From a virus: a stretch of DNA of 64,000 nucleotides. Under the pieces are notes generated by a model, which was given only the letters and a program-made list of their open reading frames with translations, did not search any database and was not told the origin of the DNA. Numbering within the stretch: position 1 is the first letter of the stretch; every line of letters starts with the position of its first letter. Below are positions 1,099-47,479 of the stretch, in pieces. The stretch covers positions 1-64,000 of IMG/VR virus record IMGVR_UViG_3300047509_000037. One strand, written 5' to 3'. A program made the position numbers and the translations under genes.

Positions 1099-3093
1099 CT
1101 AGCCCATCAAGTCTGAGAGCGGGTTGTTGTTTGCCCACAACGCTTCTTCAGCATTGCGTCTGGCAACCGCGTCCGGTGCTTGGTCGGGGAACTCCAACTT
1201 CGTATTCTGTGCGTTGTACTTGTCGTATTTACCGAGTCCATGCACCATGTCGTAGTGTGACTTCGCCATCGGGTCGGGCGTGAAGTCCAGTGACGCTGCC
1301 TGAATCTTTGCTTCGGCGTCTGCGTAGCTGGAGAACGTGTTGACCATGATTGCGAGGGCATCGACGATGTCATCGTGCGTGCTCGACGCCGTGCCGAACT
1401 TCGACAACTCATCGTAGAGTTCGTCGAGGGACGGGCACGTGTTTACGAACTTCAGGCGGTCGTCTCCAAGGAATCGGAGAACCGGACCAGCCTTCATCTG
1501 CTTGGAGTTTTTCTTGTTGCCCTGTCCAAGCGGGATGAGTTCAACGGGACAACGGACTTTCAACTTGTCCATCTCGCGGTAGACTTCCCGCTGGATGTAC
1601 TTCATTGCTCCGGTGTCTTCAATGCAAACTCGTTTCGGCTTCCATTGGAGAGCCGTCGCCGCAATCATCGCGGGGAGCGTGTACTCGTCATAGCGACCGC
1701 GTTTCATGTCGATGACGTAGAACCGTCCGCCGTAAATCAGTGCGGTGATGATGACCGTGTAGTCCGCCCACGACTTCGTGCTGTAAGCGGTGTCCACGCA
1801 CGTCACAATCATCCCGGTGCCGGGAACCTCAACCGCGTTCACAGTTTTGCGAATCAGCAGTTCCCGTGGGAACTTGATGACGTGCATCTGTGTCGGGTCG
1901 TTGAGGTACTTGATTGCGAAGTACGGGTCGGTCTTTTTCAGATAGCGCAGGTTGGCATAGGTGAGAGAGTTCGGATTGTCGGGCACGTTAAACCACAGCG
2001 CCCAATCATTCTCGACCATCTCCTCCTCAATTTTGCCTTGCTTGACAGCGTCGAGGTTTGCCCACCATGCAGGACGGATGTAAATCTTCATGGGGAACTT
2101 CTCCCCATCTTCCTCATACGCCTGCTTGTTTTTGATGTCTTGACCGTAGGTATCTTCGGCGTCGTACCATGTTCCAATCTTGTCGTAGAACCCATACGGG
2201 TGCAACATAGCTTGGTTGATACTGACTTGCTTGTTGACCGCCTTCAGGCGTTCAACGGTGAGCGAGTTTTCGTTGGTCACCACGTCGTCCAGTTTCAGGA
2301 CGCATACGTGGAAGCCCGTCAAGGACTGCTCAATAGACGCGGAAAATATCGTCGGCTCTTTCCCTTTGATGGCGGTCGCGGGGGTTTGGAACTCGTTCGC
2401 TTTACCTTCATCAACCGGGATGCAGTGCTCCGCAAAGAGCACTTGGAACATTTTGTAGGTGCCGTCGTCGAACTGCTTCGGACGATAGCACTTCTTCGGG
2501 ACCATCAGGTCTTGGTACTCAGGCGTTCCTTCTTCGAGCGTGAAGTGCTCTTTGATTTCACCGATGAACTTGTCAGCCAGCTTCAACACGCCGGAGAGCA
2601 CGAGAATCGTGACTTCGGGGTACGTGATGATGTACTGGATGCTGTCTGCCATGTTCATCGTGGATTTGAAGCCGCCACGAGGGACCAAGAGAAGCCGTTG
2701 CTTCTCCTCAATGTATTGCATGGCGAACTCTTTGAAGTTCACCTTGGTTGGGTCTTTGCGGACGAAGAACTCGTTGCAGATTTCTTCGTGCGTGTTGTGA
2801 ATCGTACCGTCTTTCCAAACGTACTCGCCGTCGGACATTTCTTTGTAGCCGAGCAGCTTGCACAGGAAGAACAGATTAGTTTGCGCGAGGAACCGCGCAC
2901 GTGCGATGAGAGTTGGGTCAACGAGACCGAACTTCGCCCACACCTTCTTGCAGCGTTCGAGGCGCTCTTTGTTCATGCGCTTCAGGCTGGCTTTCGCCCG
3001 CTCGTCGAACTCCACGTCCGTCATGTCTCGGTGCTGGTAGTTCTTATCCAGCCGATGCTTCTCCACAAGGGATACGAGTGCGTCCACTTTCAC
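1099..3093 (-). CDS. terL: Terminase large subunit
   Basis: Walker A-like LLLVPRGGFKST, Walker B LKLDDVV, IGTWY coupling motif, RNase H-like nuclease (VDTAYS...ADYT, C-terminal HDDIVDA). Start moved to GTG 3093, which has a GGAGG RBS. Confidence 0.9.
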   Translation of the reverse strand: MKVDALVSLVEKHRLDKNYQHRDMTDVEFDERAKASLKRMNKERLERCKKVWAKFGLVDPTLIARARFLAQTNLFFLCKLLGYKEMSDGEYVWKDGTIHNTHEEICNEFFVRKDPTKVNFKEFAMQYIEEKQRLLLVPRGGFKSTMNMADSIQYIITYPEVTILVLSGVLKLADKFIGEIKEHFTLEEGTPEYQDLMVPKKCYRPKQFDDGTYKMFQVLFAEHCIPVDEGKANEFQTPATAIKGKEPTIFSASIEQSLTGFHVCVLKLDDVVTNENSLTVERLKAVNKQVSINQAMLHPYGFYDKIGTWYDAEDTYGQDIKNKQAYEEDGEKFPMKIYIRPAWWANLDAVKQGKIEEEMVENDWALWFNVPDNPNSLTYANLRYLKKTDPYFAIKYLNDPTQMHVIKFPRELLIRKTVNAVEVPGTGMIVTCVDTAYSTKSWADYTVIITALIYGGRFYVIDMKRGRYDEYTLPAMIAATALQWKPKRVCIEDTGAMKYIQREVYREMDKLKVRCPVELIPLGQGNKKNSKQMKAGPVLRFLGDDRLKFVNTCPSLDELYDELSKFGTASSTHDDIVDALAIMVNTFSSYADAEAKIQAASLDFTPDPMAKSHYDMVHGLGKYDKYNAQNTKLEFPDQAPDAVARRNAEEALWANNNPLSDLMG

Positions 3094-3529
3094 GGCGTTG
3101 CCTCCACAATTCAGCGTAGGCAACAATCTTTGCGAGAACGGTCGGAGAGTCTTTAGCGAAGCCGAGTATAACATTGCAGGAGTGGCAAAGAATGCCACGA
3201 ATACATTTCCCACAACTTCTCGAACTATCACAGCAAGCATGGTCGTGGTCAACGCACCATCCCCGCCCTCCGGGTTCTGTAGCCCCGCATGAAGCGCAAC
3301 ATCGACCTTGCGAATCGAATAGCGCATTCCACGCATCCGAGGTTAGCCCGTATTTCTCACGTCTACGTTTCTCAACGCATCGTTCGGGATTATCATCACG
3401 CCAACGCTTTGCGTAAGCAGCGTGCTCCTCTGGATGTTCTTTCGCACGCTTGCTAGAACGGGCGATAACTGCATCACGATTTCGGTCGTAATAACGACTA
3501 GCCGCGTCTTTCTGGTTCTGCGTTTGCAT
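3044..3529 (-). CDS. Endonuclease VII-family (HNH-like) endonuclease
   Basis: KYGLT...QGRCCASC...VDHDH...IRGILCHSCN motif; overlaps the terminase start. Confidence 0.85.
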   Translation of the reverse strand: MQTQNQKDAASRYYDRNRDAVIARSSKRAKEHPEEHAAYAKRWRDDNPERCVEKRRREKYGLTSDAWNALFDSQGRCCASCGATEPGGRGWCVDHDHACCDSSRSCGKCIRGILCHSCNVILGFAKDSPTVLAKIVAYAELWRQRRESGRTRIPCGEASAG

Positions 3530-13894: not shown

Positions 13895-14218
13895 ATGAGC
13901 ACACGTTGGAATCGGGCAAACCCCGAACGTGCTAAAGAAATTGCAAAGAAATCATATCACATAGACCCGTTCCGCGCAAAGATGCGTGATTTTGTGCCGG
14001 AGCCAGAAATCAATCGGGCAATCGAAGCGTGGAAAATTTTTGACGGAGTGTGCCAAGGGTGCGGCACCCGGTGTTCTACGAAGTTCGATACGGACCACGA
14101 CCACATCACCAAAAAGTTTCGTGGCATCCTTGGGTCGAAGTGCAACAAGACTCTCGGATTGATGAAGGATGATATTGAGCGGCTGCTTGCACTCGCTCAA
14201 TACCTCGTGAGGATATGA
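13895..14218 (+). CDS. Endonuclease VII-family endonuclease
   Basis: CQGCG...DTDHDH...FRGILGSKCN. Confidence 0.8.
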   Translation: MSTRWNRANPERAKEIAKKSYHIDPFRAKMRDFVPEPEINRAIEAWKIFDGVCQGCGTRCSTKFDTDHDHITKKFRGILGSKCNKTLGLMKDDIERLLALAQYLVRI

Positions 14219-16305
14219 TGGGCGACCCCAAGATTGTAGCAGAACTTCGAGCAGCCGCTCAAGCATCTCTCGACCGTGGCTTCTCAATTCTTATTTGTGA
14301 ACCCCACGACAAGAACCCGTTCGTAAAGTACAGCCCACATGCGGTGAACTCCGCAACGAACGATGCGACGATTGCACTCAAGGCATGGGATGACGGGCAC
14401 GAAGCAAACTACGGCGTTGCTGGTGGTAAGAGCAACCTCGCCCTCGTTGACTGTGACCAAGGTCTCGCAGATGAAGTCGCGCTCGACGCGTGGATGAAAA
14501 AGAACAACCTGCCTGAGACGTTCACCGTCCGGTCGGGTCGCACTACGTCTGCCGGATTCCACTTGTACTACAGTGGCACCGTCCCCACGACAGGCTACAA
14601 CATCGACGGCGTCATTGGAGAAATCCGTGGCGTTGGCGCATACGTCGTTGGTCCCGGCTCCATCCACCCCTCCGGCAAGAAATACGAAATCATTCGTGAC
14701 GTTCCGGTTGTCTCCCTGCCGGAGAACTTGAAAGAGATTGCCCAGAAGAAGCACGAGACGATGGCTGCGTACCAGCCGGGAATCGACGAGAAGATTCCAG
14801 AGGGCAACCGCTGGATGCACCTTCAGTCGATGGCGGGAAAACTCCGCAATCTTGGGCTGGACCGCGACGGCATTTACACCGCGCTCAAAAATTTCTGCGT
14901 CAACAATTGCGTTAATGGTGACAACTATCCGAACGAGAAGATTGAACTCCTCGCGGACGCCGCCGACGAAAAATTCAAAGCGAATGTCGCGGGCATTGTC
15001 AGCATCGGGAAGCAGGACACCGAAGCCGACACTACAATTCCTGAGACGCCAATCTCCACGATTGACGGCGATGCTCTCGGAGACCTAAGCCTTGCGCTCA
15101 CCAACGGGACATTCATCCCGGCAGGGTTTGCTCGTGCGTCTCTGAAGGCACTCGCTGGCGCGATGCTCGACGACAACATCGGATTCCCCGGAGAACCCAG
15201 CCTACACATGCGGCACTGGAATGCGCTCATCTCATCTCGCCCAGAGATGGGAAAGGGCGAAGCCTGGAAGCGCATCATGTCTTTCATGGCACCGCTTGCG
15301 GAGCAATGCGAAATCATTTTTCCGAAGGGCGGCTTCTTCTCCTCCGGCGAACACGCCATCAAGACTCTCGCAGCCAATGACGGCAAGGCTCACCTTGCGT
15401 ACTTCGACGAAATGCGAAACCTGTTCGAGAAGGGCAACTCCAGCGGGTCAACGCTGTTTGCCAAGCTGCTCGAACTCTACGAACAGAAGCAGGGCGGCGT
15501 CGGCAGTCTGACGCACAACGCGGCGATGTTTGAGAACGTATCGCTCTCTATGACGGGCGGCTTCACTCTCGACGGCTTCGAGCGTGCGACATCCGGTAAG
15601 GGTGTTGGCGGCGACGGATTCCTGTCGCGTATGGTGCTGGAGTATTCCGGCGGCGTCAACTACCACGGTGATTGGGATGACCTTGACGCCCAGAAGGTGA
15701 ACGCGGCTGTCGCTGCAATCAAGGACGCTGTCGTGTGGCTTCGCAACTATAAGGGAGAACACAAAGGCGAACGCTTCGTTCCTGTGGAAGACTTCGACGC
15801 GAAGGCCCTCCGCATGGACTTCCAGAAGTGGCTCAAACAGCAAAAGGAAATCATTGAGAAGAACACTCCCGGCGCATCCTATGCGGCTCGTCTGGAGTCA
15901 CACTTCAAGCGCGACTTGCTCATCCGAGTTGCCTTCACCCCGGAGAAGAAGATTACCGGGAAGCTGACGCAGAAGGCAATTGATTGGGCGAAACACCAGT
16001 TGAAACTCCGATGCGAACTCTGGACGGTGGACCGGGGCGGCGACGTTCAACAAGCCGAACTGAAAATCGTCAAAGCCGTAAGAGAAAAGGGTCCGCTCAC
16101 CAAGACTGAACTTCAAAAGTTCACAAACGCAGCGAAGGGCGCAGGCGGCTTCGATGCGTGGAACCGAGCACTCACCAGTGTTACTCGCGCTGGTCAAATC
16201 GTTCTGATGCCGTACAAGAGTCAACGCGGCAAGGAAGTGTTCGGGTTCGACGGAATGTTCTGGAGTAAGAACAAAGGCACTTGGCTACCGGAGATTGATT
16301 TATGA
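14215..16305 (+). CDS. Bifunctional primase-polymerase (Prim-Pol) fused to a DUF3987-like helicase domain
   Basis: ANYGV, LVDCD, GFHLYY, YVVGPGSIHPSG, PriCT-like IPEGNR; degenerate P-loop SRPEMGKG, YFDEM, GFLSR. Confidence 0.85.
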   Translation: MMGDPKIVAELRAAAQASLDRGFSILICEPHDKNPFVKYSPHAVNSATNDATIALKAWDDGHEANYGVAGGKSNLALVDCDQGLADEVALDAWMKKNNLPETFTVRSGRTTSAGFHLYYSGTVPTTGYNIDGVIGEIRGVGAYVVGPGSIHPSGKKYEIIRDVPVVSLPENLKEIAQKKHETMAAYQPGIDEKIPEGNRWMHLQSMAGKLRNLGLDRDGIYTALKNFCVNNCVNGDNYPNEKIELLADAADEKFKANVAGIVSIGKQDTEADTTIPETPISTIDGDALGDLSLALTNGTFIPAGFARASLKALAGAMLDDNIGFPGEPSLHMRHWNALISSRPEMGKGEAWKRIMSFMAPLAEQCEIIFPKGGFFSSGEHAIKTLAANDGKAHLAYFDEMRNLFEKGNSSGSTLFAKLLELYEQKQGGVGSLTHNAAMFENVSLSMTGGFTLDGFERATSGKGVGGDGFLSRMVLEYSGGVNYHGDWDDLDAQKVNAAVAAIKDAVVWLRNYKGEHKGERFVPVEDFDAKALRMDFQKWLKQQKEIIEKNTPGASYAARLESHFKRDLLIRVAFTPEKKITGKLTQKAIDWAKHQLKLRCELWTVDRGGDVQQAELKIVKAVREKGPLTKTELQKFTNAAKGAGGFDAWNRALTSVTRAGQIVLMPYKSQRGKEVFGFDGMFWSKNKGTWLPEIDL

Positions 16306-16526: not shown

Positions 16527-18614
16527 ATGAAGAAACTTTGGTTGGATTTTGAAACGCGGTCCTTCATCGACCTGAAGGACTGCGGGCTTGACAAGTACGC
16601 GAAAGATGTCACGACTGAAGTGCTCATGCTTGCGTGGGCGTTCGACGACGATGCGGTCAACCTCTGGTTGCCGTGTCTCGGAGAGCCTATGCCCGAAGCA
16701 CTCAAAGCGGGGTTGGAAGACCCCGACGTGATGAAGATGGCGTGGAACTACAACTTCGAGAAAGACATCTTCCAGTATCGCGTGGGAATCATCATCCCGC
16801 AGGCACAGTGGTTTGACCCCAGCGTGCTCTGTGCGTACATGTCCCTGCCTGTCGGCTTGGACCGCGCCGCGAATGCGCTCAACATCGACATTGAGTTGAA
16901 GAAGACTGTTATCACTGGCAAAAATAAGCCTGTGAAGCTATTTTCGGAGCCGTCGAAGCGAACGAAGACGTTCCTCAAAAAGAATCCGGGGATGCCGGAG
17001 TTCTACTACAAAGATTGGAACTCGGACCCAGAGAAGTGGCAGGAGTTCTGCGATTATTGTAAGCAGGACGTTGTGGCAGAACGTGCCGTGTGGTATGGCG
17101 CGGTCGCACTCAATTGCCCCATCACTGAGGAGGAAACTCGTGCGTGGCTGCTCGACCAGCGCATGAACGACACGGGCGTCTACATCGACACGCAGTTCGT
17201 CGCCAACGCGAAGAACATCGCTATCGTCGAAGCCGACGGTCTCGTGAAAGAGACGAAGGACATCACGGGGCTGGAGAACCCGAACTCCCCGAAGCAACTG
17301 AAGGAATGGTTGCAAGCGAGGAAGTATCCGTTCAACTCGCTCGACAAGGCGCACGTTGAGGAAGCCCTGAAAGAAAAAGGGCATCTCTGCCTGCCGCCAC
17401 TTGTCGTTGACGTTCTAGACCTGAAACAAAAACTCGGCGGGTCCGCGTACAAGAAATTGCAGACCATCGAAGACCGCATCGGCAGCGACAGCCGACTGCG
17501 TGACCAGTTCGTCTACCACGGTGCTCACACCGGACGGTGGTCTGGACGCGGCGTGCAGTTACAGAACTTGTTCAAGCCGAGCAAAGATGTCAGCACGTTG
17601 CGTGACCCAATCGTCAACGCAATTCGCGGCAACTCGCTCGACCTCGAACTCATCGTTTCGGAGTACAACAAATCCGTCGCGGAGTTCAACGCGAAGGAAC
17701 CCGACGCGAAAAAACATAAGAAGCCCATCAAGGGCGTCACGACGATGCAGGCGGTCGCAGGCACGATTCGCGCCGCATTCATCCCGACGCCGGGATACAA
17801 ATTCTCCGTAAGCGATTTGGCACAGATTGAGTCCCGCGTTCTCGCGGCTCTCGCTGGTTGTCAGACGATGATTGATGCCTATGCGAAAGGTCTCGACCTT
17901 TACAAAGACATCATGTCGTTCCTGCTCAACAAGCCATACGACACGATTACCAGCGCAGAGCGTGCCGACGGCAAGGTCATCATCCTTGGTTGCGGCTTCG
18001 GCATGGGCTGGGAGAAATTCATTGACTACGCGGCAACGTTCGGTGTTACACTGGACGAGAAGACGGCGAAGACCTACGTCAACGCCTTCCGCGAGAAGTA
18101 CAGCGAGATTCCGGCATACTGGAAGGCTCTCGACAAGGCTTGTGTCACAGCGACGAAGCTGAACATCTGCGTCTACGTCAAAGGCGTGGTCGTCGATGGG
18201 CGCAATCCTGAAATGCTCAAAATCAAATTGCCGTCCCAACGGTGCTTGCATTATCTGCATCCGAAAGTGACGCAAGAGATGACTGAGTGGGGCGCGGTTC
18301 GTGAGGGAGTCTCTTACGAAGCGTTCGACGAGAAAGGTCTTCAACTCAAGCGGCTCTACGGCGGACTCATCTGCGAAAACGTTGTGCAGGCTGTCGCACG
18401 CGACATCCTACTCAACGGAATGTTTGAAGCAGAGAAGGTCGGCTTCAGAATCGTAATGACAATTCACGACGAAGTGGTGGGAGAGTCACCGCTCACTTCT
18501 CCGCTCACGTTCAAGGACATGGAACACGCCATGACACGAACGCCTGAGTGGGCAGAGGGCATGGGGTTCGTTCTCGCTGCGGAAGGATATGACTGTGCTT
18601 ACTACCGAAAGTAA
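16527..18614 (+). CDS. Family A DNA polymerase (phage type)
   Basis: Exonuclease LDFET, TGRWSG, motif A DLAQIESR, motif B RADGKVIILGCGFG, motif C TIHDE. Confidence 0.95.
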   Translation: MKKLWLDFETRSFIDLKDCGLDKYAKDVTTEVLMLAWAFDDDAVNLWLPCLGEPMPEALKAGLEDPDVMKMAWNYNFEKDIFQYRVGIIIPQAQWFDPSVLCAYMSLPVGLDRAANALNIDIELKKTVITGKNKPVKLFSEPSKRTKTFLKKNPGMPEFYYKDWNSDPEKWQEFCDYCKQDVVAERAVWYGAVALNCPITEEETRAWLLDQRMNDTGVYIDTQFVANAKNIAIVEADGLVKETKDITGLENPNSPKQLKEWLQARKYPFNSLDKAHVEEALKEKGHLCLPPLVVDVLDLKQKLGGSAYKKLQTIEDRIGSDSRLRDQFVYHGAHTGRWSGRGVQLQNLFKPSKDVSTLRDPIVNAIRGNSLDLELIVSEYNKSVAEFNAKEPDAKKHKKPIKGVTTMQAVAGTIRAAFIPTPGYKFSVSDLAQIESRVLAALAGCQTMIDAYAKGLDLYKDIMSFLLNKPYDTITSAERADGKVIILGCGFGMGWEKFIDYAATFGVTLDEKTAKTYVNAFREKYSEIPAYWKALDKACVTATKLNICVYVKGVVVDGRNPEMLKIKLPSQRCLHYLHPKVTQEMTEWGAVREGVSYEAFDEKGLQLKRLYGGLICENVVQAVARDILLNGMFEAEKVGFRIVMTIHDEVVGESPLTSPLTFKDMEHAMTRTPEWAEGMGFVLAAEGYDCAYYRK

Positions 18615-18709
18615 AGAAGGTCTCAACCCATCCATCCCGTGCAACCTCAGCCGAACATTCGATGAGGAGCGCCACGCTCCGGCGGGGATGGTCGAGCCGT
18701 CGAGTTTTA

Positions 18710-19126
18710 ATGAAAGAAAACATGACACGACAAACATTGTGGGCGCGACGGAATTATAAGAAGAACCGTCGCAAACGTCTCGCATGGGAGAAGTCACACC
18801 AGATTCTCCTCATGTGGCACCGAGCGAAAAATCGCGCAAAGAAGTTGGGCGTGCCTTTCACCATATCGGTCGAAGACATTCAGATTCCGAAAGTCTGTCC
18901 TGTTCTTCACACCCCTATTCGATGGCGTGCGAAGAATCGTGACAACTCTCCGAGTTTGGACAGGCGACGTGCGGACCTCGGTTACGTGCCGGGAAACGTC
19001 GTGGTCATATCAAACCGAGCGAATCGAATCAAGAGCGATGCGACTGCGGCGGAACTCTGGTTCGTCTGGAACTATTGTCGTCGTCAAATTTTGCTTGACA
19101 CAGGCGTCGATAACCTGCTAGGGTAA
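18710..19126 (+). CDS. HNH-like endonuclease
   Basis: RAKNRAKKLGVPF...CPVL...SPSLDR...GYVPGNVVVISNRANRIK. Confidence 0.8.
   Translation: MKENMTRQTLWARRNYKKNRRKRLAWEKSHQILLMWHRAKNRAKKLGVPFTISVEDIQIPKVCPVLHTPIRWRAKNRDNSPSLDRRRADLGYVPGNVVVISNRANRIKSDATAAELWFVWNYCRRQILLDTGVDNLLG
19095..19124 (+). promoter_or_regulatory. Sigma70-like promoter upstream of the tmRNA region
   Basis: TTGACA-18nt-TAGGGT with TG extension. Confidence 0.45.
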
Positions 19127-19430: not shown

Positions 19431-19569
19431 CCAAGATTCCCGAACGGATGGGTAGCGTGCGGCTGACCAGTGGATGCGACAAGAAACCCCACACAGCGGA
19501 CGAGGCTTTGGCTCAGTAGGGAAATGACATCGGGACGGCGAGGGGCGGAAGAAGGCTAAACTCATACCT

Positions 19570-19975
19570 CAACTAGTTGTGCCGAGCCTTTCTAGTAGGC
19601 ACATGCCGCGACGATTTACGCACGTATGAAGCGCAGGCTTCTGTTGTCGGACGCGGGTTCGACTCCCGCCGCCTCCACCAAGAGCACCAATAATTCCGAC
19701 GGCACCCTTCAGAGGGGACTCGCCGCGAGTATAGAGGGATTTCTGAATTGGTGTTCTTGACGGGGGCGTCATGGTTTCGACGGCGGCTGATGCAGGCGGG
19801 GACGTGCCGGGGTGCTGTGGCTCACCGACCGAAAGGTTAGAGCGCAAGAACGAGTTGCGCCAACGAGACATCAGAAAAAACACTTGCTAAGACTAACACT
19901 CTTGCAATGGGCGCTGCCGCTGGTCGGTAGTTCTCACGCGGCTTGGTCCCCACCGTGTCAAATAACGGGGACACT
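19570..19975 (+). ncRNA. ssrA: Circularly permuted (two-piece) tmRNA
   Basis: Acceptor piece ending GGACGCGGGTTCGACTCCCGCCGCCTCCACCA (19680) lies upstream of the conventional 5' end GGGGGCGTCATGGTTTCGAC (19762). G3:U70 pair present. Tag ORF 19886-19930 reads AKTNTLAMGAAAGR*. Outer boundaries approximate. Confidence 0.85.
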
Positions 19976-19994
19976 TTTTCTCAGGAGAACCAAC

Positions 19995-20261
19995 ATGAGC
20001 AAAGAATCGACATCCGTCAGCGTGGGCTTTCCGCTGGCAAGCATTCTCACCGTCATCTTCGTCATTGCGAAGTTGATGGGCACCGTGGCGTGGTCTTGGT
20101 GGTGGGTGTTCTCACCGCTGTGGATTAGCGCCCTTCTCGGCATCGGTGTCTTCGTCATCATCATCATCATGGTCGTGGCGGCAATCATCGCCGTCATCGC
20201 CGCAATTCTCGACAAGTTCACGGGCACACGCTGTTGTGGAACACCGGGGAAATCTCGGTGA
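19995..20261 (+). CDS. Small membrane protein (WSWWWVFSPLW type)
   Basis: AGGAG RBS; two hydrophobic helices; motif common in phage membrane proteins. Confidence 0.7.
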   Translation: MSKESTSVSVGFPLASILTVIFVIAKLMGTVAWSWWWVFSPLWISALLGIGVFVIIIIMVVAAIIAVIAAILDKFTGTRCCGTPGKSR

Positions 20262-20368
20262 ACAGCTACGCAAAGAGTCCCTGACTGATTGAACGGCTGG
20301 CAATTCTAGAACAAGCCACGCCTAGTAATCTTTGTGGACCGGAGGTTCGACTCCTCAGGTGCCCACCA
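20222..20368 (+). ncRNA. tRNA-like RNA with expanded D and anticodon domains
   Basis: GGGCAC/GTGCCC-A-CCA acceptor, GAGG-TTCGACT-CCTC T-arm, CGCAAAGA/TCTTTGTG central stem. Confidence 0.55.
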
Positions 20369-20812: not shown

Positions 20813-21418
20813 ATGAGTGGAGTTCTCATCACCAGCGACGAGCACTACGGGCACGAGCGCATCATCGAACTCGCCAATCGTCCGTTCGTCTCCGTCGAGG
20901 AGATGCAGGAAACCATCATTGAGCGGCACAACAAGAAAGTTCCGAACAACCCTAACTACCTGACGATTCACGCCGGGGATTTGTTCTGGCATTCGATGAA
21001 CTCAAGCGATGCCGCTGTCATTCTCACGCGGCTGCACGGGCGTCACGCGTTCCTGTACGGCAACCACGACGAACTCATCGAAGGCAACCAATTTCTCCAG
21101 ATGATGTTCAAGTGGGTGAAGGGTAAGAACAAGGTTGGCGGCGCGACCACCATCAATCACAACAAGCACAGCCTGACCATCTCGCATTTCGCTCGACGTG
21201 TTTGGCAATCCAGCCACAAAGGACACTGGCACGTTTACGGGCACTCGCACTCGGCGCTCCCCGGACTCGGCAAGTCGTTCGACATTGGTGTGGACGGCAA
21301 TGACTTTACTCCGTGGGCGCTGGAGGAAATCGAAGCGAAGATGAACTCGCTACCTCAGCATCACACCATCAACACACCGGAGCCGGGAGCACTGATGTGG
21401 TCGATGATGGGAATCTGA
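20813..21418 (+). CDS. Calcineurin-like metallophosphoesterase
   Basis: SDEHYGH, AGD, GNHD, GHSH motifs. Confidence 0.9.
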   Translation: MSGVLITSDEHYGHERIIELANRPFVSVEEMQETIIERHNKKVPNNPNYLTIHAGDLFWHSMNSSDAAVILTRLHGRHAFLYGNHDELIEGNQFLQMMFKWVKGKNKVGGATTINHNKHSLTISHFARRVWQSSHKGHWHVYGHSHSALPGLGKSFDIGVDGNDFTPWALEEIEAKMNSLPQHHTINTPEPGALMWSMMGI

Positions 21419-21668: not shown

Positions 21669-22541
21669 ATGGCATCAGAGGCGAACGTCCAACTCTACAT
21701 GGAAGGGTTGTGTAAAGTTGCGACCCAAGGAAACGTCTCTGTCAATTTCGCGTGGTTTGCGAACCGGATGGAGTTGTTCTGCAATAAGTGCAAGCAGACG
21801 TTGACCGCCGCGAAGCCTGAAGACACGACCATAGATTACGCGGTCCAAGAATTTCTCAAGCTGCATCTGCACAAGGTTCACCCGGACTATTGCTCGTGTG
21901 AGACCTGTGCTGCCATCGTCGCGCAAAAACAGAAAGAGACGTGGGGTGACAAAAAGAATCCGTGGGCTAAGAACGAAGTCCCTCTGACTGCGGACTTCAA
22001 GCCCGTGCCGCAACAATCGTTCACTGGCGAGGAAGCCTACAAGACCGCGATGGATGCGGCGCTCACGAAACCCGACGCGGTCGTGATGACAAACATCGAA
22101 GTGCCTGACCCGGACGGATATGGGCTGACGAACCTGCCCAAGATAAAACCGCCGATGAACAACTACGACAAGGATGCTCCATACCTTGCGGAGAAATTGA
22201 AATCGGTCCAGCAAGAGTACGCCGCGAAGGTGAACGACGTAGCGAACAAGATTAAGCTGCTTCAACTCTCGTCGCAGGAAGCGAAACTTGAGGCGATGCA
22301 ACAGAAGGTAGCCGCCGCTCAGAAAGCATTTGAGGAACAGGCGAAAGCTGTCACGGCGGAAGATGGGGTTTACTACTCGAAAGAGACCGTCGAGAAACTA
22401 AAGCAGCAACTAGAAGGATTCGGCTATAAGAAGCCGCTGCAAATCATACAGCATCAGCCTTACGTTCCGCCGCAACCGCCCGCTCCGGCTCCAAAGAAAG
22501 AGAAGCCGCTCAAGCAGGCAGCGGGAAGGAAAATCCGATGA
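21669..22541 (+). CDS. Hypothetical Zn-finger/coiled-coil protein with C-terminal GRKIR
   Basis: CNKC and CSCETC; ends KQAAGRKIR*. Confidence 0.75.
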   Translation: MASEANVQLYMEGLCKVATQGNVSVNFAWFANRMELFCNKCKQTLTAAKPEDTTIDYAVQEFLKLHLHKVHPDYCSCETCAAIVAQKQKETWGDKKNPWAKNEVPLTADFKPVPQQSFTGEEAYKTAMDAALTKPDAVVMTNIEVPDPDGYGLTNLPKIKPPMNNYDKDAPYLAEKLKSVQQEYAAKVNDVANKIKLLQLSSQEAKLEAMQQKVAAAQKAFEEQAKAVTAEDGVYYSKETVEKLKQQLEGFGYKKPLQIIQHQPYVPPQPPAPAPKKEKPLKQAAGRKIR

Positions 22542-29534: not shown

Positions 29535-30458
29535 ATGGCATCACTCGCACCCGCATTCAATCAGACAGTCAACGTCACGAAGGCAACCCAAGAATGCGTG
29601 TACATCACGACGCACTATCACATGGGCATCGGTCGGATGCGACAGATTAGCCTCGACACGAAGAACGTCACGACCGCTGACGCGTCGGAACTGCGTCACC
29701 AGAAGCGGCTGATTGATTCGCCTGAACTCGACGCCATCCGTTCGCAGGATGGATTCATGCAGCGCCACATCGACAGCGTCACCTGTGCTTGCGACAAGAG
29801 CACGCGGTTCCTGCCGAAGCCCGAACTGGCGAAGCTGTACAAGGCGCTGGTCGCATACCAGACCATCCGGCGTCCGAAACTCGTGGACGCATTCATGGCG
29901 AAGTATGAAGCCCTCGAAGCTGCGGACTTCACGCCACTGGCTGAAGTGCTGGGCGACAAGTTTGACCGTGCCGATTATCCGAAGGCTGACACGGTTCGCG
30001 CTGGCTTCTACATGACGTTCCGCATTCGTCCGGTCGGTAGCGTGAACCTTGAAGGCTGCCCTGACTTCGTCATTGCGATGGAGTTGGAGAAAGAACTGAG
30101 CGAACGCACTGCCGCAATCGAAGCGTGGAAGGACACGCTGCGGTTGGCTGGTCTCGCTGCCGTAGAGACCCTGGCGAAGGCACTGTCGCCTGACCCGGAT
30201 GGCAAGCGCAAGAAACTCTACGAGAGCAACGTCGAGAACCTGAAGCAATACCTCGACACATTCACCAACCGCGACCTCGCCTCTGACATCGAATATCAGA
30301 AGACGGTCGTCGAACCGCTGAAAGCTATGATGCGCGGCGTCTCAATCGAAAAGTTGCGAGAGAGCGACAACCTGAAAGTTGAAATCGCTGCCAAGCTGGA
30401 AGGCATCAAGAAGAATGCCAGCCGGCTCGTGCAAGTCACTGGTCGTAAAATTCGCTAG
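29535..30458 (+). CDS. DUF3150-like protein with C-terminal GRKIR
   Basis: KRLIDS..., LGDKFDRADYP...VRAGF, GKRKKLYESNVENL; ends VTGRKIR*. Confidence 0.65.
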   Translation: MASLAPAFNQTVNVTKATQECVYITTHYHMGIGRMRQISLDTKNVTTADASELRHQKRLIDSPELDAIRSQDGFMQRHIDSVTCACDKSTRFLPKPELAKLYKALVAYQTIRRPKLVDAFMAKYEALEAADFTPLAEVLGDKFDRADYPKADTVRAGFYMTFRIRPVGSVNLEGCPDFVIAMELEKELSERTAAIEAWKDTLRLAGLAAVETLAKALSPDPDGKRKKLYESNVENLKQYLDTFTNRDLASDIEYQKTVVEPLKAMMRGVSIEKLRESDNLKVEIAAKLEGIKKNASRLVQVTGRKIR

Positions 30459-30888: not shown

Positions 30889-32451
30889 ATGTCTAAGACA
30901 TTCATTCAGATGTTCACGGATGCCCGCGCAGTCTCGACACCGAACGTCGCAATCAAGACGTTCGACAACGCGTCCACCATCCAAGGTATTCGCGCTTCAC
31001 TCGGCGGCGAACTCGCTGAGTTAACGCCGTTCGTATCGTGGGATGGTATCCACGGTCTCAAAGGTCTGAACGACTCCGGCGTCGAAGCGGTCGATGCGAT
31101 GTGCAAGAAAGCTGACGGCGGCGCTGGGGTTGACCGCGCTGCCACGGTTGACTTGACCATCTGTCTCGCCACGCTTGAAGAAGCGGACGAGGATGTCATC
31201 GCCTTCATTCACAACCCGCAATTGTTTTGGGACAAAGACCCGCGTGCCATTCAGGGCATGTGGAATCTGCGTGACCCCAACAAGGCGGCTGGCAACATGC
31301 TGGTGCTCTTGCTTGGTCCTGGCGACGAACTGCCTGCGGAACTTCAGCAGGACACGCTGGTGCTCGAAGAACCGTTGCCCACGCGTGACCAGCTTGCGAA
31401 AATCGTGACCGACACCTACGGTTACTTCGCACAGAAATATCCCGCGTGCAAAAAGGGACCGTCGGCTGAAGTGCTCAAGGCTGCGGTCGATGCACTCATC
31501 GGTCTGCCAGCGTTCCCGGCTGACCAGGCTGTTGCGATGTGCTTGGACAAAGCCACGGGCATTCTCGACATCGAAACCCTGTGGGCACGCAAGCGCAGCA
31601 TCGTGAGCCAGAACCCCGGACTCAGCTACCACGCTGGGAAAGAGAAGCTGGCTGACATGTACGGATGCGCCCCGATTCAGGCATTCGGCAAGGCTTTCAT
31701 GGGCGGCAAGTTCGCTCCCACACTCATCGTCCGCATGGATGAAATCGAAAAGCAATTCGCTGGCGCTGGCACGGATAGCAGCGGCACGAAAGGCAACCTG
31801 CTTGGTGAGTGGCTGACGTGGGTGAACGACAAGCGCATCGTGTGCTCGTTGTTCGTCGGCGTTCCGGGTTCGTCCAAGTCGCACAGCGTTTACTGCATCG
31901 GCGGCGAGTACGGTCGTCCGGTCATCAACTACAGCATCCCCGGCATGGAGCATGAGCACGTCGGCATGTCTTCACGTCACCAGCGCACAGCGCACCGCGT
32001 GCTGGACGCAATCAGCGACGAGAAAATCTGGCTCATCGCTACTGCGAACAACATCGACGGCTTGCCGCCGGAGCTAATCTCCCGGTTCCAAGTCGGCGGC
32101 ATTTTCTTCTTCGATGCTCCTGACTCCGATGAGAAGCAGGGCATTATGAAGCTGAAGATGAAAGCCTACGGTCTCGACGCAAACCAGGACGTTCCGAACA
32201 TGGACGACTGGACTGGTCGTGACGTTGACAACTGCGCTCGTAAGGCGCTCACGCTGGGTATCGACTTGGACAACGCGTCGAAGTTCATCGTGCCACTGCT
32301 CCAGTCACACGGGGCGCAGATGGATGCACTGCGGCAATCCGCCAGCGGTCGCTTCCTCGCAGCCAACAAAGAAGGCGTGTACAAATACAGTCCTCCTGTT
32401 AAGAAACCTATTGTCACCGTCACAAACCCTGAGGGTAGGAAAGTCAGGTAG
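30889..32451 (+). CDS. Ycf46-like AAA+ ATPase with permuted core and C-terminal GRKVR
   Basis: Walker B IVRMDEIEK precedes Walker A-like GVPGSSKS; sensor-1 IATANN, LPPELISRF, IFFFDAP, WTGRDV. Confidence 0.85.
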   Translation: MSKTFIQMFTDARAVSTPNVAIKTFDNASTIQGIRASLGGELAELTPFVSWDGIHGLKGLNDSGVEAVDAMCKKADGGAGVDRAATVDLTICLATLEEADEDVIAFIHNPQLFWDKDPRAIQGMWNLRDPNKAAGNMLVLLLGPGDELPAELQQDTLVLEEPLPTRDQLAKIVTDTYGYFAQKYPACKKGPSAEVLKAAVDALIGLPAFPADQAVAMCLDKATGILDIETLWARKRSIVSQNPGLSYHAGKEKLADMYGCAPIQAFGKAFMGGKFAPTLIVRMDEIEKQFAGAGTDSSGTKGNLLGEWLTWVNDKRIVCSLFVGVPGSSKSHSVYCIGGEYGRPVINYSIPGMEHEHVGMSSRHQRTAHRVLDAISDEKIWLIATANNIDGLPPELISRFQVGGIFFFDAPDSDEKQGIMKLKMKAYGLDANQDVPNMDDWTGRDVDNCARKALTLGIDLDNASKFIVPLLQSHGAQMDALRQSASGRFLAANKEGVYKYSPPVKKPIVTVTNPEGRKVR

Positions 32452-36851: not shown

Positions 36852-37480
36852 ACGGTAAGAACCTCAGCCTCGCACGTCTCATCCCACGAGGGAAAGACGC
36901 GGACAAGCGTTTGAAATATCTCCACGTCAACAACAAGGGCGTCACCGCTGTCAGCCCCGAACTGGTCGCACGCGTCACACTGCCTGACGGTGTAGCGCAG
37001 CCCCAGCAGTCGGTCATCTACCCGCAGGAGTCTCTTGATTCGATTCCGATGGGAGCACGTGCGCCGGAGAGCAACGAACTGGTGACACTGACTGGAGACA
37101 AGCCCGCGTTCACAGGTCCGCACTATCTCGTGCCGATGGTGGACAAGTGCTTCCCAGAGCCGACAGAGACCACCGCGACGTTCACGTGCAACGGAGAACT
37201 TCTCCGCAAGCTGCTCACGGTCGCGTGCGAAGTGTGCAACGACAGCAACAAGACTCTGCGTCTTCGCATCGTTGACAACGGCAAGGCTCTACGCGTGGAC
37301 ACGTATCGCCAGCCGGGAGAACAAGAATTTTGTGGCGTCATCAAACCAATTGAGTACGACGGCGATTACATCCCCGGCGAGATTCCATCAGGTACGCCGA
37401 AGGTCGAGAAGAAACCTCAGCAGACAGGTCTGTTGCTGAAGACCAGCGCCGGGAGGAAAATCCGAGGCGAGGGTGAGTAA
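36839..37480 (+). CDS. Possible degenerate beta-clamp-fold protein with near-terminal GRKIR
   Basis: C-terminal FCGVIKPI resembles clamp-like C-terminal strands; ends SAGRKIRGEGE*. Confidence 0.5.
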   Translation: MYKLNGKNLSLARLIPRGKDADKRLKYLHVNNKGVTAVSPELVARVTLPDGVAQPQQSVIYPQESLDSIPMGARAPESNELVTLTGDKPAFTGPHYLVPMVDKCFPEPTETTATFTCNGELLRKLLTVACEVCNDSNKTLRLRIVDNGKALRVDTYRQPGEQEFCGVIKPIEYDGDYIPGEIPSGTPKVEKKPQQTGLLLKTSAGRKIRGEGE

Positions 37481-38669
37481 CGGTTGCTTCCATGAGATGC
37501 AGAATGGCGCTACCGCCGTCATCCGGCATCAAATGATTAACGGAGACATCTGGGTTAGGTGTCTTCGATGCGGCGACACGTGGCACTCCGAGGAGGAGTT
37601 CGCAATGAGCACAGGCACGGGGAAAGCGAAATGCAAACACACTCAGTGGACCACCGACAAGGTGACCGGGGTGAAGATGTGTACGGATTGCGGCACTGAC
37701 CTTGCCAAACATCCGAAGTGCAATCACGCCCTGGCGAAAATCGTCATCGAAAATGGAATGACGAAGACGCAATGTGAGAAGTGCGGAGTGATTGTCACAG
37801 AGGGTCCGGTGCAATCCGTGAAGGTTCCGCTGGGCTATGAGAAGCGATTGCTCCCGATTCCGAACGTGCGCCCCGTCGGACAGTGGGTCAAGGAAGGATT
37901 CGGAGCATTCCAGCCGAAGACACGACAGCAAGCGCAGATTCTCATCGACGAGTGGAACGAAGCATGTCAGACGAACGGCATGAAAGTTGAGTACCGCCTG
38001 CCCGTGGTGAATGTTGACTTACGTTGCAAGAAATGCGATACTCTCGTGAACGAGACGTACAAGGGCGATGTCTGCCTCTCGTGTCACCTTCAGGAGAAAA
38101 TGGCAATGGCGAAAGAACCTAAGGTCTCGAAGTCGAACCCCGATTTTGATATTTACGGAATGCCTGTCTGGAAGACCAAGAACAAACCCGCGTTCAACGT
38201 TAACAGCACTCCGGCGAAACCTGTCACGAAGAAACCAACTCTCATGGTCGTGCCGAAGGCTCCTGTCGTTCACACCGAGGGAGACATCTGGGAATTACCA
38301 CACGTCAATGCTCCGTTTATGAGTAAGCAATGGGCGTACCAAGGCAGCGCATCGACGCCGTATGTCATCACGCACTACCAGACCAAGCGCGATGGCGCGG
38401 TGACGAAAGATGGTTGGGCTTGCTCGTGCATGAATTTTACGCGGAAGACCCCACGCACCGAATGCAAGCACATCCTGAAGACGATGATGAAGAACGGCAC
38501 GAAGCCCACGGCTGATGCGAAGCTGGCGGCGGTACCCGATGAGACCCTGAAGGCGTTCCAGAAGTGGCAGCGCGAACAAGCGGCGGCGGGCGTCCCGGTC
38601 GGTGCGGGCGTCGGCGCTGAGAAGGGCAAGCTGAACATGTTTGAGAACAAGGGGAGGAAAATCCGATGA
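37473..38669 (+). CDS. Multi-Zn-finger protein with SWIM domain and C-terminal GRKIR
   Basis: Several CxxC pairs; WACSCMNF...ECKHI SWIM motif; ends NKGRKIR*. Confidence 0.75.
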   Translation: MSNGCFHEMQNGATAVIRHQMINGDIWVRCLRCGDTWHSEEEFAMSTGTGKAKCKHTQWTTDKVTGVKMCTDCGTDLAKHPKCNHALAKIVIENGMTKTQCEKCGVIVTEGPVQSVKVPLGYEKRLLPIPNVRPVGQWVKEGFGAFQPKTRQQAQILIDEWNEACQTNGMKVEYRLPVVNVDLRCKKCDTLVNETYKGDVCLSCHLQEKMAMAKEPKVSKSNPDFDIYGMPVWKTKNKPAFNVNSTPAKPVTKKPTLMVVPKAPVVHTEGDIWELPHVNAPFMSKQWAYQGSASTPYVITHYQTKRDGAVTKDGWACSCMNFTRKTPRTECKHILKTMMKNGTKPTADAKLAAVPDETLKAFQKWQREQAAAGVPVGAGVGAEKGKLNMFENKGRKIR

Positions 38670-38980
38670 AGCATATCGCAATTTTCAGGGTAGAGGGGTA
38701 CTCCAAAACGGGAACCGACCAGGCTTTCGTCACGGGGAAAGGCGAGGAGTCAGTGACCACGCATCTCAAGGCGGACAGTTGGAATCCCGGCGCACGCATC
38801 GGAGCGTTCACACTGCACTCGCTGGAGAGCAAAGCACCTGAGTGGAAGGATGGTTTCATCGTCACTCTGGAACCGTTGCCACCAAAGCCCGAAGGCGCGG
38901 ACTACACCGGATATCTAAAGCAGGTAATCGCGGAGAAGCTAGACCCAACTCCAGCACCGAGCGGGAGAAAAATCCGATGA
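38666..38980 (+). CDS. Hypothetical protein with C-terminal GRKIR
   Basis: ATGA-coupled; ends PSGRKIR*. Confidence 0.7.
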   Translation: MKHIAIFRVEGYSKTGTDQAFVTGKGEESVTTHLKADSWNPGARIGAFTLHSLESKAPEWKDGFIVTLEPLPPKPEGADYTGYLKQVIAEKLDPTPAPSGRKIR

Positions 38981-40369: not shown

Positions 40370-40876
40370 ATGTTGAAATCAATGACACGCGAAGAACTGG
40401 ACAGGCTGCTCGAAGTCGCCAAGCAAGAGTCCTTCATGGACTACCTGATGATGCTCGTGACGTTTCTCCACGGGCTTCGAGTCTCCGAGACGTTGTCGCT
40501 GACAAAAGACAACATCGTCAACGGCTACATCGTCGTGAAGCGCGGCAAGGGTTCGCACAAATGCGAACATCCCCTCTTACTCACGCCGAGCGAAGCCGAG
40601 CACCTGTCCAGTATCGAAGGCAAGTTCTTCACGATGTCGCGCATCACGTTCTGGCGCAGGATGCAGAAATACGGTGCGACCGCTGGGCTGGCTCCATACC
40701 TGAGGCACCCGCACACGCTGAAGCACACGTGCGGCAGGCTGGGGTTTAAGGGCGGCATGACGGTGCCCGACCTCGTCGAGTGGCTTGGTCACAAGAATCC
40801 AGCGATGGCTCTGGTGTATTCCGCCAGTGATATTGACACGGCGTCACGAGCGTTCGCCGCTGCGGTGGGACGCTGA
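40370..40876 (+). CDS. Minimal tyrosine recombinase (catalytic domain only, FimB/XerC-like)
   Basis: HGLRVSE, KRGK, HPHTLKH, LGH...Y; no N-terminal core-binding domain. Confidence 0.8.
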   Translation: MLKSMTREELDRLLEVAKQESFMDYLMMLVTFLHGLRVSETLSLTKDNIVNGYIVVKRGKGSHKCEHPLLLTPSEAEHLSSIEGKFFTMSRITFWRRMQKYGATAGLAPYLRHPHTLKHTCGRLGFKGGMTVPDLVEWLGHKNPAMALVYSASDIDTASRAFAAAVGR

Positions 40877-43321: not shown

Positions 43322-43609
43322 ATGCCAAGTAAAAAGCGCAAGCTGCTACAAGCTGAAATCGAATACCTCGACCCGCTCAACTGCGGCTCGACACTCGGCT
43401 ACAACATCGTCGACGGTCGCCGGGGACTCTATGGCGACGTGGACATCACTGATTGCAATCGCAAGGTGACGTGGAACTTCAGCGTCAGCGACGAGAATCC
43501 GCTGGCGAAAATCGACTGTGCTATCGGTCTGCTCATTCGATTCCGGTCGAAGCTGGACCTAGAACTTTCCAAGGCGAAGAAGCGCCGCCCGCGAAAACCG
43601 AGGGCTTGA
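43322..43609 (+). CDS. Hypothetical protein
   Basis: ITDCNRKVTW motif; coupled to the upstream gene. Confidence 0.55.
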   Translation: MPSKKRKLLQAEIEYLDPLNCGSTLGYNIVDGRRGLYGDVDITDCNRKVTWNFSVSDENPLAKIDCAIGLLIRFRSKLDLELSKAKKRRPRKPRA

Positions 43610-43643
43610 CACGCGTGGTATACTAGTGTCTGGAGGATTTCTC

Positions 43644-43919
43644 ATGGACAAAGAAAAATCGGTCAAGGTCGTCACGCTCGAAGGCACATTCCCTGAACTG
43701 GTCGTGAAGCACGTGTACCAGCAAGGGCGGGGCACCGGGAGCAACATCCGTGCCGCTGCCGCCGCTGCCATTCGGGATTTGATGAGTAAGCCGGGATTGA
43801 AAGCCCGCCGCATCACATCTGCGAAGTTGACAATGAGCATTGGAACGCGTATAGTCGATTCAGTCGAATCCACGGAGGGCACCAATGTCGCTGATGGTCT
43901 ACAAAAATCGAACGGTTGA
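43644..43919 (+). CDS. Hypothetical protein
   Basis: GGAGG RBS. Confidence 0.6.
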   Translation: MDKEKSVKVVTLEGTFPELVVKHVYQQGRGTGSNIRAAAAAAIRDLMSKPGLKARRITSAKLTMSIGTRIVDSVESTEGTNVADGLQKSNG

Positions 43920-44394
43920 AGTCATCGAAACGTCCGGCTCGTTGTCCAAGATTAACGACGACGGCAACGAGTACAGCGTGAAAACCGCCAGCCTCAAGGC
44001 ACCGAAGACGCCCCGGCGTCCCAAGAGCCTGAACATCGTCACCATCACGGAGAGCATGAAGCCCTTTGTGACATATCTGCTCACCGCTCAGGCGAAGACC
44101 TTGCTCACGCTGGAAGCACAGTGTGAGGAGATGGACTTCGCGGTTCGCAAACAGTACACCGCTCTGACGGGCGGCGACGAACTGGTCGAGGGTGCGGGCT
44201 ACCACGTCGCGCCGGAGTCAGCCAAGAAAGAAGGCTGCGAGGGTAGTGTCACATTCGTCATGCCAACCGACGAGTCCATCATCACACCGGAGATTACCGC
44301 CATGATGACACAGCGTCCCGGTCTCATCAACCGAATCGGTTTCGTGTGGGCTTTGGTCGAAGCCGGATTCAAGGTGGCGCGGGTTCTCGGATAG
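43885..44394 (+). CDS. Hypothetical protein
   Basis: GGAGG RBS. Confidence 0.65.
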   Translation: MSLMVYKNRTVEVIETSGSLSKINDDGNEYSVKTASLKAPKTPRRPKSLNIVTITESMKPFVTYLLTAQAKTLLTLEAQCEEMDFAVRKQYTALTGGDELVEGAGYHVAPESAKKEGCEGSVTFVMPTDESIITPEITAMMTQRPGLINRIGFVWALVEAGFKVARVLG

Positions 44395-46197: not shown

Positions 46198-46575
46198 ATG
46201 GCAACTTCAAAAACCAAAACCGGAGCCACACTCGTCTCGACCATCGGCGGTCGTGTCAAGTATCGCTTCACTTCCATCCTGATGAAGCAGGTCCAAAGCA
46301 GATACGCCTACTTCGCAACCAAGAACGAGATTTTCTCGCTCATCAACAGCCTGTTCCGCACGGAAGTCGCTGAGTTCCCGACGATTGTTTACACCGGGAC
46401 GCAGGGTCGCACGACCTACAACGCCCGCAAGAACAGCTACGGTGGATTCAGCATCGGCTGTCAAGACTTCGACCGCAACACGGTTCGCGCTATCGCAGCC
46501 AGCGTCGGTCACTCGAAGTCATTCATCAACGCGTACCTGCCCCGGTTGGCGAAAGCCGCTGCCGCTGGTCGCTAG
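46198..46575 (+). CDS. Hypothetical protein ending AAAAGR
   Basis: GAGGAGG RBS; C-terminus matches the end of the tmRNA tag. Confidence 0.7.
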   Translation: MATSKTKTGATLVSTIGGRVKYRFTSILMKQVQSRYAYFATKNEIFSLINSLFRTEVAEFPTIVYTGTQGRTTYNARKNSYGGFSIGCQDFDRNTVRAIAASVGHSKSFINAYLPRLAKAAAAGR

Positions 46576-47468: not shown

Positions 47469-47479
47469 AGGAGTCCAAC

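Follow-up and report, generated by a model that had tools for sequence, protein, structure and literature searches.

We find that a 96-kb soil phage carries a genuine gene for the ribosome-rescue RNA, tmRNA (ssrA), in the circularly permuted form expected to mature into a two-piece RNA, and that its tag reading frame ends in an unusual, conserved Gly-Arg, an ending that two of the phage's own proteins also carry. The window analysed is a stretch of 64,000 nucleotides, the first 64 kb of the 96,151-bp IMG/VR virus record IMGVR_UViG_3300047509_000037, which CheckV rates as 100% complete. Two-piece tmRNAs in phages were already reported in 2022, so that what is new here is the soil phage lineage, whose likely host phylum uses a one-piece tmRNA, the presence of unannotated genes of the same sort in two cultured Acidobacteriota phages, and a charged tag end that is under selection and mirrored on phage proteins.

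The initial annotation had described, from the sequence alone, an acceptor half with an encoded CCA lying upstream of the 5' half, an acceptor stem with the G3:U70 Ala identity pair, an ACGTGC/GCACGT helix, and an 81-nt intervening segment closed by a helix stacked beyond the acceptor stem. This observation holds, as each of these elements is found at the coordinates it had listed. Its proposal that ARAGORN and covariance models would recover the gene was put to the test: ARAGORN reports one permuted tmRNA at 19588-20021 on the plus strand, and the Rfam tmRNA_permuted model (RF04321) matches 19620-19946 over its full length (model positions 1-213) at 65 bits against a cut-off of 47 (E 2.8e-10 for the window), far beyond chance. 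The interpretation as a phage-encoded circularly permuted tmRNA gene is likewise supported, with three qualifications. Phage two-piece tmRNAs are not new, a spacer hairpin is also present in the three alphaproteobacterial genes we fetched and is thus a standard feature, and the pairing it gave for P2, GACGGCGG/CTGTTGTC, is shifted by 3 nt; the register listed below is the one in the Rfam model and is supported by covariation, including G-C to A-U exchanges. The alpha_tmRNA (RF01849, cut-off 50 bits) and beta (RF01850) models do not report the window's own copy at their cut-offs, while two close relatives among the viral contigs, L005 and L024, pass the alpha cut-off with 72.8 and 51.7 bits; L005 also scores 66.8 bits on the beta model, below that model's cut-off of 84.

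Coordinates of the tmRNA gene and of the phage genes discussed in the text (positions in the window)
Feature	Coordinates	Strand	Description
Large terminase (TerL)	1099-3336	-	
Prim-pol/helicase	14215-16305		
Family A DNA polymerase (PolA)	16527-18614		
Endonuclease VII	18662-19126		
Acceptor piece	19620-19680	+	3' half of the tRNA-like domain; 5' end lies somewhere between about 19578 and 19619
P2b	19620-19625 with 19802-19807	+	ACGTGC/GCACGT
P2a	19643-19649 with 19781-19787	+	5' strand followed by the GAC linker
T arm	19653-19669	+	19653-19657 with 19665-19669, loop TTCGACT
Acceptor stem, 3' strand	19670-19676	+	CGCCTCC
A73	19677	+	Discriminator
Encoded CCA	19678-19680	+	
Intervening segment	19681-19761	+	81 nt, predicted to be excised
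Closing helix	19680-19690 with 19748-19758	+	11 bp, AAGAGCACCAA/TTGGTGTTCTT; A76 of the CCA takes part
Leader	19759-19761	+	GAC, faces A73-C74-C75 as a 3x3 internal loop
5' part of the coding piece	19762-19807	+	
Acceptor stem, 5' strand	19762-19768	+	GGGGGCG; G3 at 19764 opposite U19674
D-loop analogue	19769-19780	+	TCATGGTTTCGA
Pseudoknot PK1	19808-19874	+	
P3	19808-19812 with 19823-19827	+	One G-A mismatch
P4	19815-19819 with 19869-19874	+	U19871 bulged
Inserted hairpin in PK1	19842-19847 with 19855-19860	+	GCGCAA/TTGCGC
Tag reading frame	19886-19930	+	14 codons encoding AKTNTLAMGAAAGR; resume codon GCT 19886-19888, stop TAG 19928-19930; A at position -4 of the resume codon
Terminal hairpin	19946-19951 with 19967-19972	+	15-nt loop ACCGTGTCAAATAAC
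U run	19975-19979	+	TTTTT; hairpin and U run (19946-19979) are the likely 3' end or terminator of the coding piece
Small membrane protein	19995-20261		
Phosphoesterase	20813-21418		
Tyrosine recombinase, catalytic domain only	40370-40876	+	168 aa, ends ...SRAFAAAVGR; Pfam Phage_integrase, E 2e-19
Small protein	46198-46575	+	125 aa, weak helix-turn-helix signal, ends ...AKAAAAGR
GroES-like protein and Clp/Hsp100 D2-type ATPase	47013-49280		ATPase gene at 48033-49280

To establish whether the proposed structure is maintained by selection, we aligned 17 phage genes, namely the window's copy, 14 IMG/VR relatives and those of the cultured phages Tunturi_3 and Tunturi_4, and counted pairs for six helices. 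In this alignment 86% of the cells pair, against 43-50% when the partners are slid by 1-3 columns, 32 of 41 pairs show changes on both sides, the covariation score is 0.456 against 0.09-0.13 for the slid controls, and none of 500 shuffles reaches any of the observed measures. The G3:U70 pair is invariant in 17 of 17 sequences, while three other acceptor pairs and four of the five T-stem pairs covary, and in the helix closing the spacer 10 of 11 pairs change on both sides, as in AAGAGCACCAA/TTGGTGTTCTT, AAAGTCACCCG/CGGGTGACTTT and AAGCGTGCTCA/TGAGCACGCTT. The 3-nt leader, GAC or GAU, always faces A73-C74-C75, whereas the interior of the spacer is not conserved and varies from 18 to 126 nt among relatives. 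The tRNA-like domain is complete, with a T loop of the GGUUCGAnUCC type and the D-loop analogue UGGUUUCGA in place of a D stem. PK1 lies just upstream of the resume codon, and P4 covaries in the close clade, for example CUGUG/CACAG and UGUAUG/CAUGCA, although only 63.5% of cells pair over all 17 sequences because distant members are misaligned. The inserted hairpin is present only in the window, in the related contig L006 and, in a different form, in the related contig L033. Since MAFFT misaligned P3 and the terminal hairpin, both were left out of the formal pair count and judged by eye. A terminator scan did not list the terminal hairpin, because its loop exceeds 8 nt. Thermodynamic folding alone is unremarkable (z = -1.4); it recovers P2b, the acceptor stem and the closing helix, but misfolds the T arm.

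The gene is phage-borne. It sits in the replication module, after the primase, PolA and endonuclease VII genes, with phage genes on both sides, and GC content along the window is flat at 51-58%. Seven related viral contigs (L002-L006, L033 and L041), with PolA 59-75% identical, carry a permuted tmRNA at the same place after PolA, which indicates inheritance within a phage clade and not a host flank or an attachment-site fragment. By PolA no cultured phage is close, the best hit being 36% identical. No SmpB domain and no RF-1/ArfB domain is found in the 96-kb genome, which extends the statement of the initial annotation that the window lacks SmpB, so that the RNA would have to use host SmpB, the same situation as in other phage tmRNAs.

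The host is inferred, and is likely to belong to the Acidobacteriota. The terminase has a single strong cultured relative, Tunturiibacter phage Tunturi_3 (44% identity, E 1e-171), the next best hit being 25% identical. Tunturi_3 (PP885686) and Tunturi_4 (PP885687) both infect Acidobacteriota and both carry permuted tmRNAs, at 88172-88396 and 43532-43941 with 63 and 79 bits, respectively; neither record annotates the gene, and the paper describing these phages never mentions tmRNA and lists "unknown" tRNAs. Both have the same architecture and G3:U70, Tunturi_3 has the terminal AACAGAA hairpin, and Tunturi_4 also has a spacer closing helix. They differ in that their tags are long and end in LAA or VAA, in that the acceptor stem of Tunturi_3 is GGGCUUG and its spacer 25 nt, and in that the gene of Tunturi_4 follows an RF-1-domain (ArfB-like) gene.

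By contrast, the tmRNAs read from nine Acidobacteriota genomes are all one-piece, with a standard gene order of 342-369 nt, the full pseudoknot region and tags ending in LAA or YAA (ANQQMAYAA, ANTQFAYAA, ANNFALAA, ANDFALAA, ANSNLAYAA, ANNQLALAA and ANDNLALAA). In a sample of 151 genomes of the phylum, five hits exceeded the cut-off of the permuted model, with 50-58 bits, and were rejected as artefacts: in four of them ARAGORN shows a tRNA-Asp directly upstream of a standard tmRNA, and at the fifth locus it shows tRNA-Val and tRNA-Asp but calls no tmRNA. One of the 151 genomes is unpublished and contributed only a sub-threshold match, so that only the count of 151 rests on it. The published census agrees, with 1589 standard, 0 alpha and 5 "beta" forms in Acidobacteriota. 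The Rfam permuted model thus gives false positives wherever a tRNA sits directly upstream of a standard tmRNA; for the phage gene this artefact is ruled out, because its upstream element has no anticodon arm or D arm and pairs with the downstream half. The phage tRNA-like domain equals that of an Acidobacteriaceae tmRNA over the last 34 nt and at 20 of the first 22 nt, and the layout around PK1 is similar. This is compatible with the use of host AlaRS, SmpB and EF-Tu, but provides only weak evidence for the host, since the sequence is widely conserved.

To place the gene among bacterial two-piece tmRNAs, such as the Caulobacter ssrA (Keiler et al. 2000) and the Rhodocyclales beta form, we fetched three alphaproteobacterial genes and one Rhodocyclaceae gene. 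The gene order, acceptor piece, spacer and coding piece, is shared, only PK1 is retained, and all four genes have a homologous post-tag hairpin with a loop ending ..AACAGAA (..CCUGGCAACAGAA.. in the alpha genes) that most phage copies share, whereas eight Acidobacteriota one-piece tmRNAs lack the AACAGAA motif. The phage gene therefore belongs with the proteobacterial-type (alpha or beta) permuted genes and is not a rearranged copy of the gene of its probable host. It differs from the alpha genes in its canonical T loop, which in the three alpha genes fetched is shorter (GCAGTAC or GCGATTC), in its tag, AKTN...AAAGR rather than ANDN...AA, and in its location in a phage whose likely host phylum uses one-piece tmRNA.

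The unusual part of the gene is the tag. Tags usually end in hydrophobic residues, most often Ala-Ala, that serve as a degron, and this one does not; as this is a usual property rather than a structural requirement, the gene is still a tmRNA, but is best regarded as a variant one, and a conserved terminal Arg is unusual. The related contigs encode the tags AETKPLAMAAAAGR (L004), ATTKPRAMAAAAGR (L006), AETEKPRAFAAAAGR (L033), ATPKRAFAAAAGR (L041), ATTEKPKAFAAAA (L003), ATPKAKAFAAAA (L024), AKTNVKAFAAHA (L005) and ATTEKPKAMSATAGM (L002). The Gly-Arg end is kept in five phages, encoded with the stop as GGT CGG TAG in the window, L004 and L006, as GGT CGG TAA in L033 and as GGA CGC TAA in L041. 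Length and frame are kept, and synonymous differences in the Ala (GCT/GCA/GCC), Pro (CCT/CCC), Phe (TTC/TTT), Gly and Arg codons indicate selection on the peptide, including its Gly-Arg end. The end is not universal, however, since L003, L005 and L024 end in AAAA or AAHA, so it is dispensable or interchangeable. On a PolA tree the Gly-Arg and Ala-Ala states sit in sister phages, L003 pairing with L004 at 99/99 support and L005 with L041 at 100/100, and the end has therefore switched more than once, or the gene has been exchanged between phages.

To see whether the tag end has counterparts in the proteome, we checked the ends of 718 six-frame ORFs in the genome, and exactly two, those of the recombinase and of the 125-aa protein, end like the tag. 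Homologues of the recombinase in relatives end AFAAAAGR or AFAAAVGK, even in the phage whose tag is AFAAAA. The 125-aa protein has the same six final residues as relatives' tags, but no homologue of it was found in five related genomes. A link between the Gly-Arg end and the phage Clp-type ATPase was also considered, but the ATPase is present in a phage with an AAAA tag (G002) and absent from Tunturi_3, Tunturi_4 and the phage of contig L010, and is therefore not specifically tied to the Gly-Arg end.

Taken together, we interpret the locus, with high confidence, as a functional ssrA gene of an uncultivated soil phage that probably infects Acidobacteriota. What the analysis establishes directly is the anatomy of the gene, its conservation by compensatory changes across a family of phage genes, its syntenic position within the phage replication module, the selection on the tag at the peptide level, and the lack of SmpB and ArfB; everything concerning expression, processing and activity is inferred. 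In this view a single precursor would be transcribed rightward with the replication genes, host RNase P would cut at 19761/19762, and host tRNA 3'-end enzymes would trim back to CCA19680 and remove the spacer, which the closing helix presents as a hairpin. An acceptor piece of about 60-100 nt and a coding piece of about 214 nt would stay together through the acceptor stem, P2a and P2b, intermolecular helices supported only by covariation and cofolding. Host AlaRS would charge the RNA, host SmpB and EF-Tu would deliver it to stalled ribosomes, and the nascent chain would receive Ala plus AKTNTLAMGAAAGR before release at UAG. The payoff for the phage is probably extra ribosome-rescue capacity while host and phage mRNAs are being cut. 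In E. coli the terminal Ala-Ala carboxylate is needed for ClpX recognition, and a Gly-Arg end should therefore change the fate of tagged chains, which are probably not recognised by the host's ClpXP-type reader in the usual way. The matching native C-termini suggest a reader shared with the two phage proteins, although this idea remains tentative.

This interpretation rests on DNA alone. A search of sequencing runs found only soil DNA metagenomes holding a substantial share of the sequence, and the contigs of four runs showed mostly the conserved T-arm words of other tmRNAs plus pieces of relatives, and nothing on transcript ends. No sigma-70-like promoter was found nearby, and the conserved upstream motif GGTAGCGTGCGGCTG is not repeated in the window. 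An upstream AGGGGCG (19542-19548) could pair with the acceptor 3' strand at 6 of 7 positions and gives 46.8 bits with RF00023 for 19541-19680, but it is not conserved in L006 and is not followed by a D-loop analogue, and we therefore rejected a mini-tmRNA of standard order. A scan of a genome collection with the tag-end pattern GCTGCCGCTGGTCGGTAR, which was too short and GC-rich, listed at least 120 hits; all 120 listed were chance matches in other frames, including a conserved Terriglobia gene on the opposite strand, and none was a tmRNA, although the loci did lead to Acidobacteriota and proteobacterial genomes.

It is feasible, although unlikely, that the RNA is a decoy whose tRNA-like domain soaks up host SmpB or blocks host trans-translation, as proposed for the TLD-only gene of mycobacteriophage DS6A (Hudson et al. 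2014, PMC4131195), and whose tag frame is not translated. A TLD-only form exists in phages, an 82-nt RF00023 hit lies next to PolA in the distant phage of contig L007, and the phage brings no SmpB. However, PK1, the A at position -4, the resume codon and a frame of 13-15 codons are all kept, with synonymous substitutions and differing stop codons across phages whose PolA is only 59-75% identical, none of which a decoy would need. Slightly less likely still is that the gene is a passenger, a bacterial two-piece ssrA picked up by a phage ancestor and drifting without function for the phage. The architecture, including the AACAGAA hairpin and the spacer hairpin, does match proteobacterial two-piece genes, and phages integrating at ssrA can capture it (discussed in PMC9004378), but the gene is retained at the same locus in at least eight diverged phages, occurs also in unrelated phage types (the Tunturi_4 siphovirus and contigs of 332 and 463 kb), has helices kept by compensatory changes, and has a tag that differs from both proteobacterial (ANDN...) and acidobacterial ones. 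An attachment-site remnant or an assembly chimera, which the frequent use of tmRNA genes as integration sites and the presence of a recombinase gene might suggest, is already contradicted by the completeness of both halves, the phage genes flanking them for tens of kilobases, the same layout in independent metagenomes and in two cultured, circularly assembled phage genomes, and the one-piece genes with different tags read from nine Acidobacteriota genomes, no true permuted gene having turned up in the 151 scanned.

Among previously described systems, the two-piece tmRNAs of marine phages (OM43 phage Melnitz and pelagimyophages; Buchholz et al. 2022, PMC9004378) are likewise permuted ssrA genes carried by a lytic phage without smpB, with a gene form that need not match the host's own tmRNA lineage and a proposed role in ribosome rescue or tagging during infection. 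That study counted 53 predicted two-piece genes among 133 unique phage tmRNAs, 50 of them from aquatic phages, and the 2025 tmRNA database lists 79 phage sequences. Those are T4-like marine myophages, and the gene of Melnitz is linked to a glutamine riboswitch, whereas the present gene belongs to a soil phage clade related to a podovirus of Acidobacteriota, lies in the replication module, has a tag ending in Gly-Arg, and has no Rfam family other than tmRNA reaching its cut-off between 19300 and 20850. The mycobacteriophage tmRNAs (Bxz1-like cluster C) and the DS6A TLD-only gene (PMC4131195) are also phage-borne ssrA genes without smpB, but are one-piece or have no coding region, and are not permuted.

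Phage tmRNAs are rare, occurring in about 2% of phage genomes, and are of unknown benefit to the phage. This clade offers a clean natural experiment, in which the likely host phylum makes a one-piece tmRNA with an ...AA tag while its phages carry a compact two-piece version, in five members with a charged end held by selection and copied on native phage proteins, and for which cultured relatives and hosts (Tunturi_3, Tunturi_4, Tunturiibacter) already exist. Whether a phage wants ribosome rescue only, or redirects the fate of rescued proteins, thereby becomes directly testable. One could speculate, although we consider it unlikely, that the phage tmRNA does not feed the host's degradation route but stamps rescued chains with a phage-specific C-terminal address (...A-A-A-G-R), also encoded at the ends of the recombinase and of a small regulator, so that a dedicated reader, either the phage's own Clp-type unfoldase working with host ClpP or an unidentified partner, would handle all of them together, with sister phages toggling between the Gly-Arg and the canonical Ala-Ala end to switch routes. 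More broadly, since alpha, beta and phage two-piece genes share the AACAGAA hairpin, phages may have moved the permuted gene form between bacterial lineages.

Both cultured Acidobacteriota phages, Tunturi_4 and Tunturi_3, carry permuted tmRNAs that are unannotated. The tag of the former is ANTVTSTIRNVASVRTGFFRSAEPITNRYAVAA, while that of the latter ends in ...MLAA. In Tunturi_4 the gene directly follows gp53, an RF-1-domain (ArfB-like) protein, so two ribosome-rescue functions sit side by side. Permuted tmRNAs with the same tRNA-like domain are also found in two jumbo-phage contigs, L013 (332 kb) and L039 (463 kb), in which the spacers are very short (35 and 25 nt) and the tags are ANAPKAMAAHA and ATAPKALAMAAAA.

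Five loci in the Acidobacteriota genomes G130, G106, G094, G067 and G084 (L184-L188) score 50-58 bits with the Rfam tmRNA_permuted model, above its cut-off of 47; in four of them ARAGORN finds a tRNA-Asp directly upstream of a standard one-piece tmRNA, and at the fifth (L185) it finds tRNA-Val and tRNA-Asp but calls no tmRNA. This systematic false positive may explain sporadic "permuted" counts outside the classic lineages. A post-tag hairpin whose loop ends ..AACAGAA (..CCUGGCAACAGAA.. in the alpha genes) is shared by alpha, beta and phage two-piece tmRNAs, as seen by comparing loci L198-L202 (Rhodocyclaceae, Novosphingobium, Pelagibius, Phenylobacterium) with the phage loci, and it is absent from 8 Acidobacteriota one-piece tmRNAs, which hints at common descent or horizontal spread of the permuted form.

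Two relatives, L041 and L002, do not encode CCA, the former having CCACCC and the latter CCACTG, and these copies would need CCA addition. L002 also has a 5-nt T loop, a 25-nt spacer and the tag end AGM, and its copy may be degenerating. In L007, from a distant phage with 30% PolA identity, an 82-nt match to standard tmRNA (RF00023, 56 bits) lies just upstream of PolA and spans the whole model with the middle deleted. It looks like a mini-tmRNA with only the tRNA-like domain, as in mycobacteriophage DS6A.

Within the window, a second CCA-ending tRNA-like element lies 250 nt downstream of the tmRNA, with acceptor GGGCAC/GTGCCC and GGAC followed by a GAGG-TTCGACT-CCTC T arm, but without G3:U70, and no Rfam family or ARAGORN call covers it. 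Two proteins have tag-like ends and five further ORFs share another end (see the table), and the phage thus uses at least two recurrent C-terminal peptides.

Positions of the tmRNA loci, the tRNA-like element and the ORFs with recurrent C-termini
Sequence	Coordinates	Strand	Feature
L053 (PP885687.1, Tunturi_4)	1437-1971		Permuted tmRNA
L183 (PP885686.1, Tunturi_3)	88172-88396 (of the record)	minus	Permuted tmRNA
L007	4917-4998		RF00023 match
L041	2807-2941		tmRNA copy with CCACCC
L002	7435-7469		tmRNA copy with CCACTG
Window	20222-20368		tRNA-like element
Window	40370-40876		Protein ending in AFAAAVGR
Window	46198-46575		Protein ending in AKAAAAGR
Window	21669-22541		ORF ending in GRK[IV]R
Window	29535-30458		ORF ending in GRK[IV]R
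Window	30889-32451		ORF ending in GRK[IV]R
Window	37473-38669		ORF ending in GRK[IV]R
Window	38666-38980		ORF ending in GRK[IV]R
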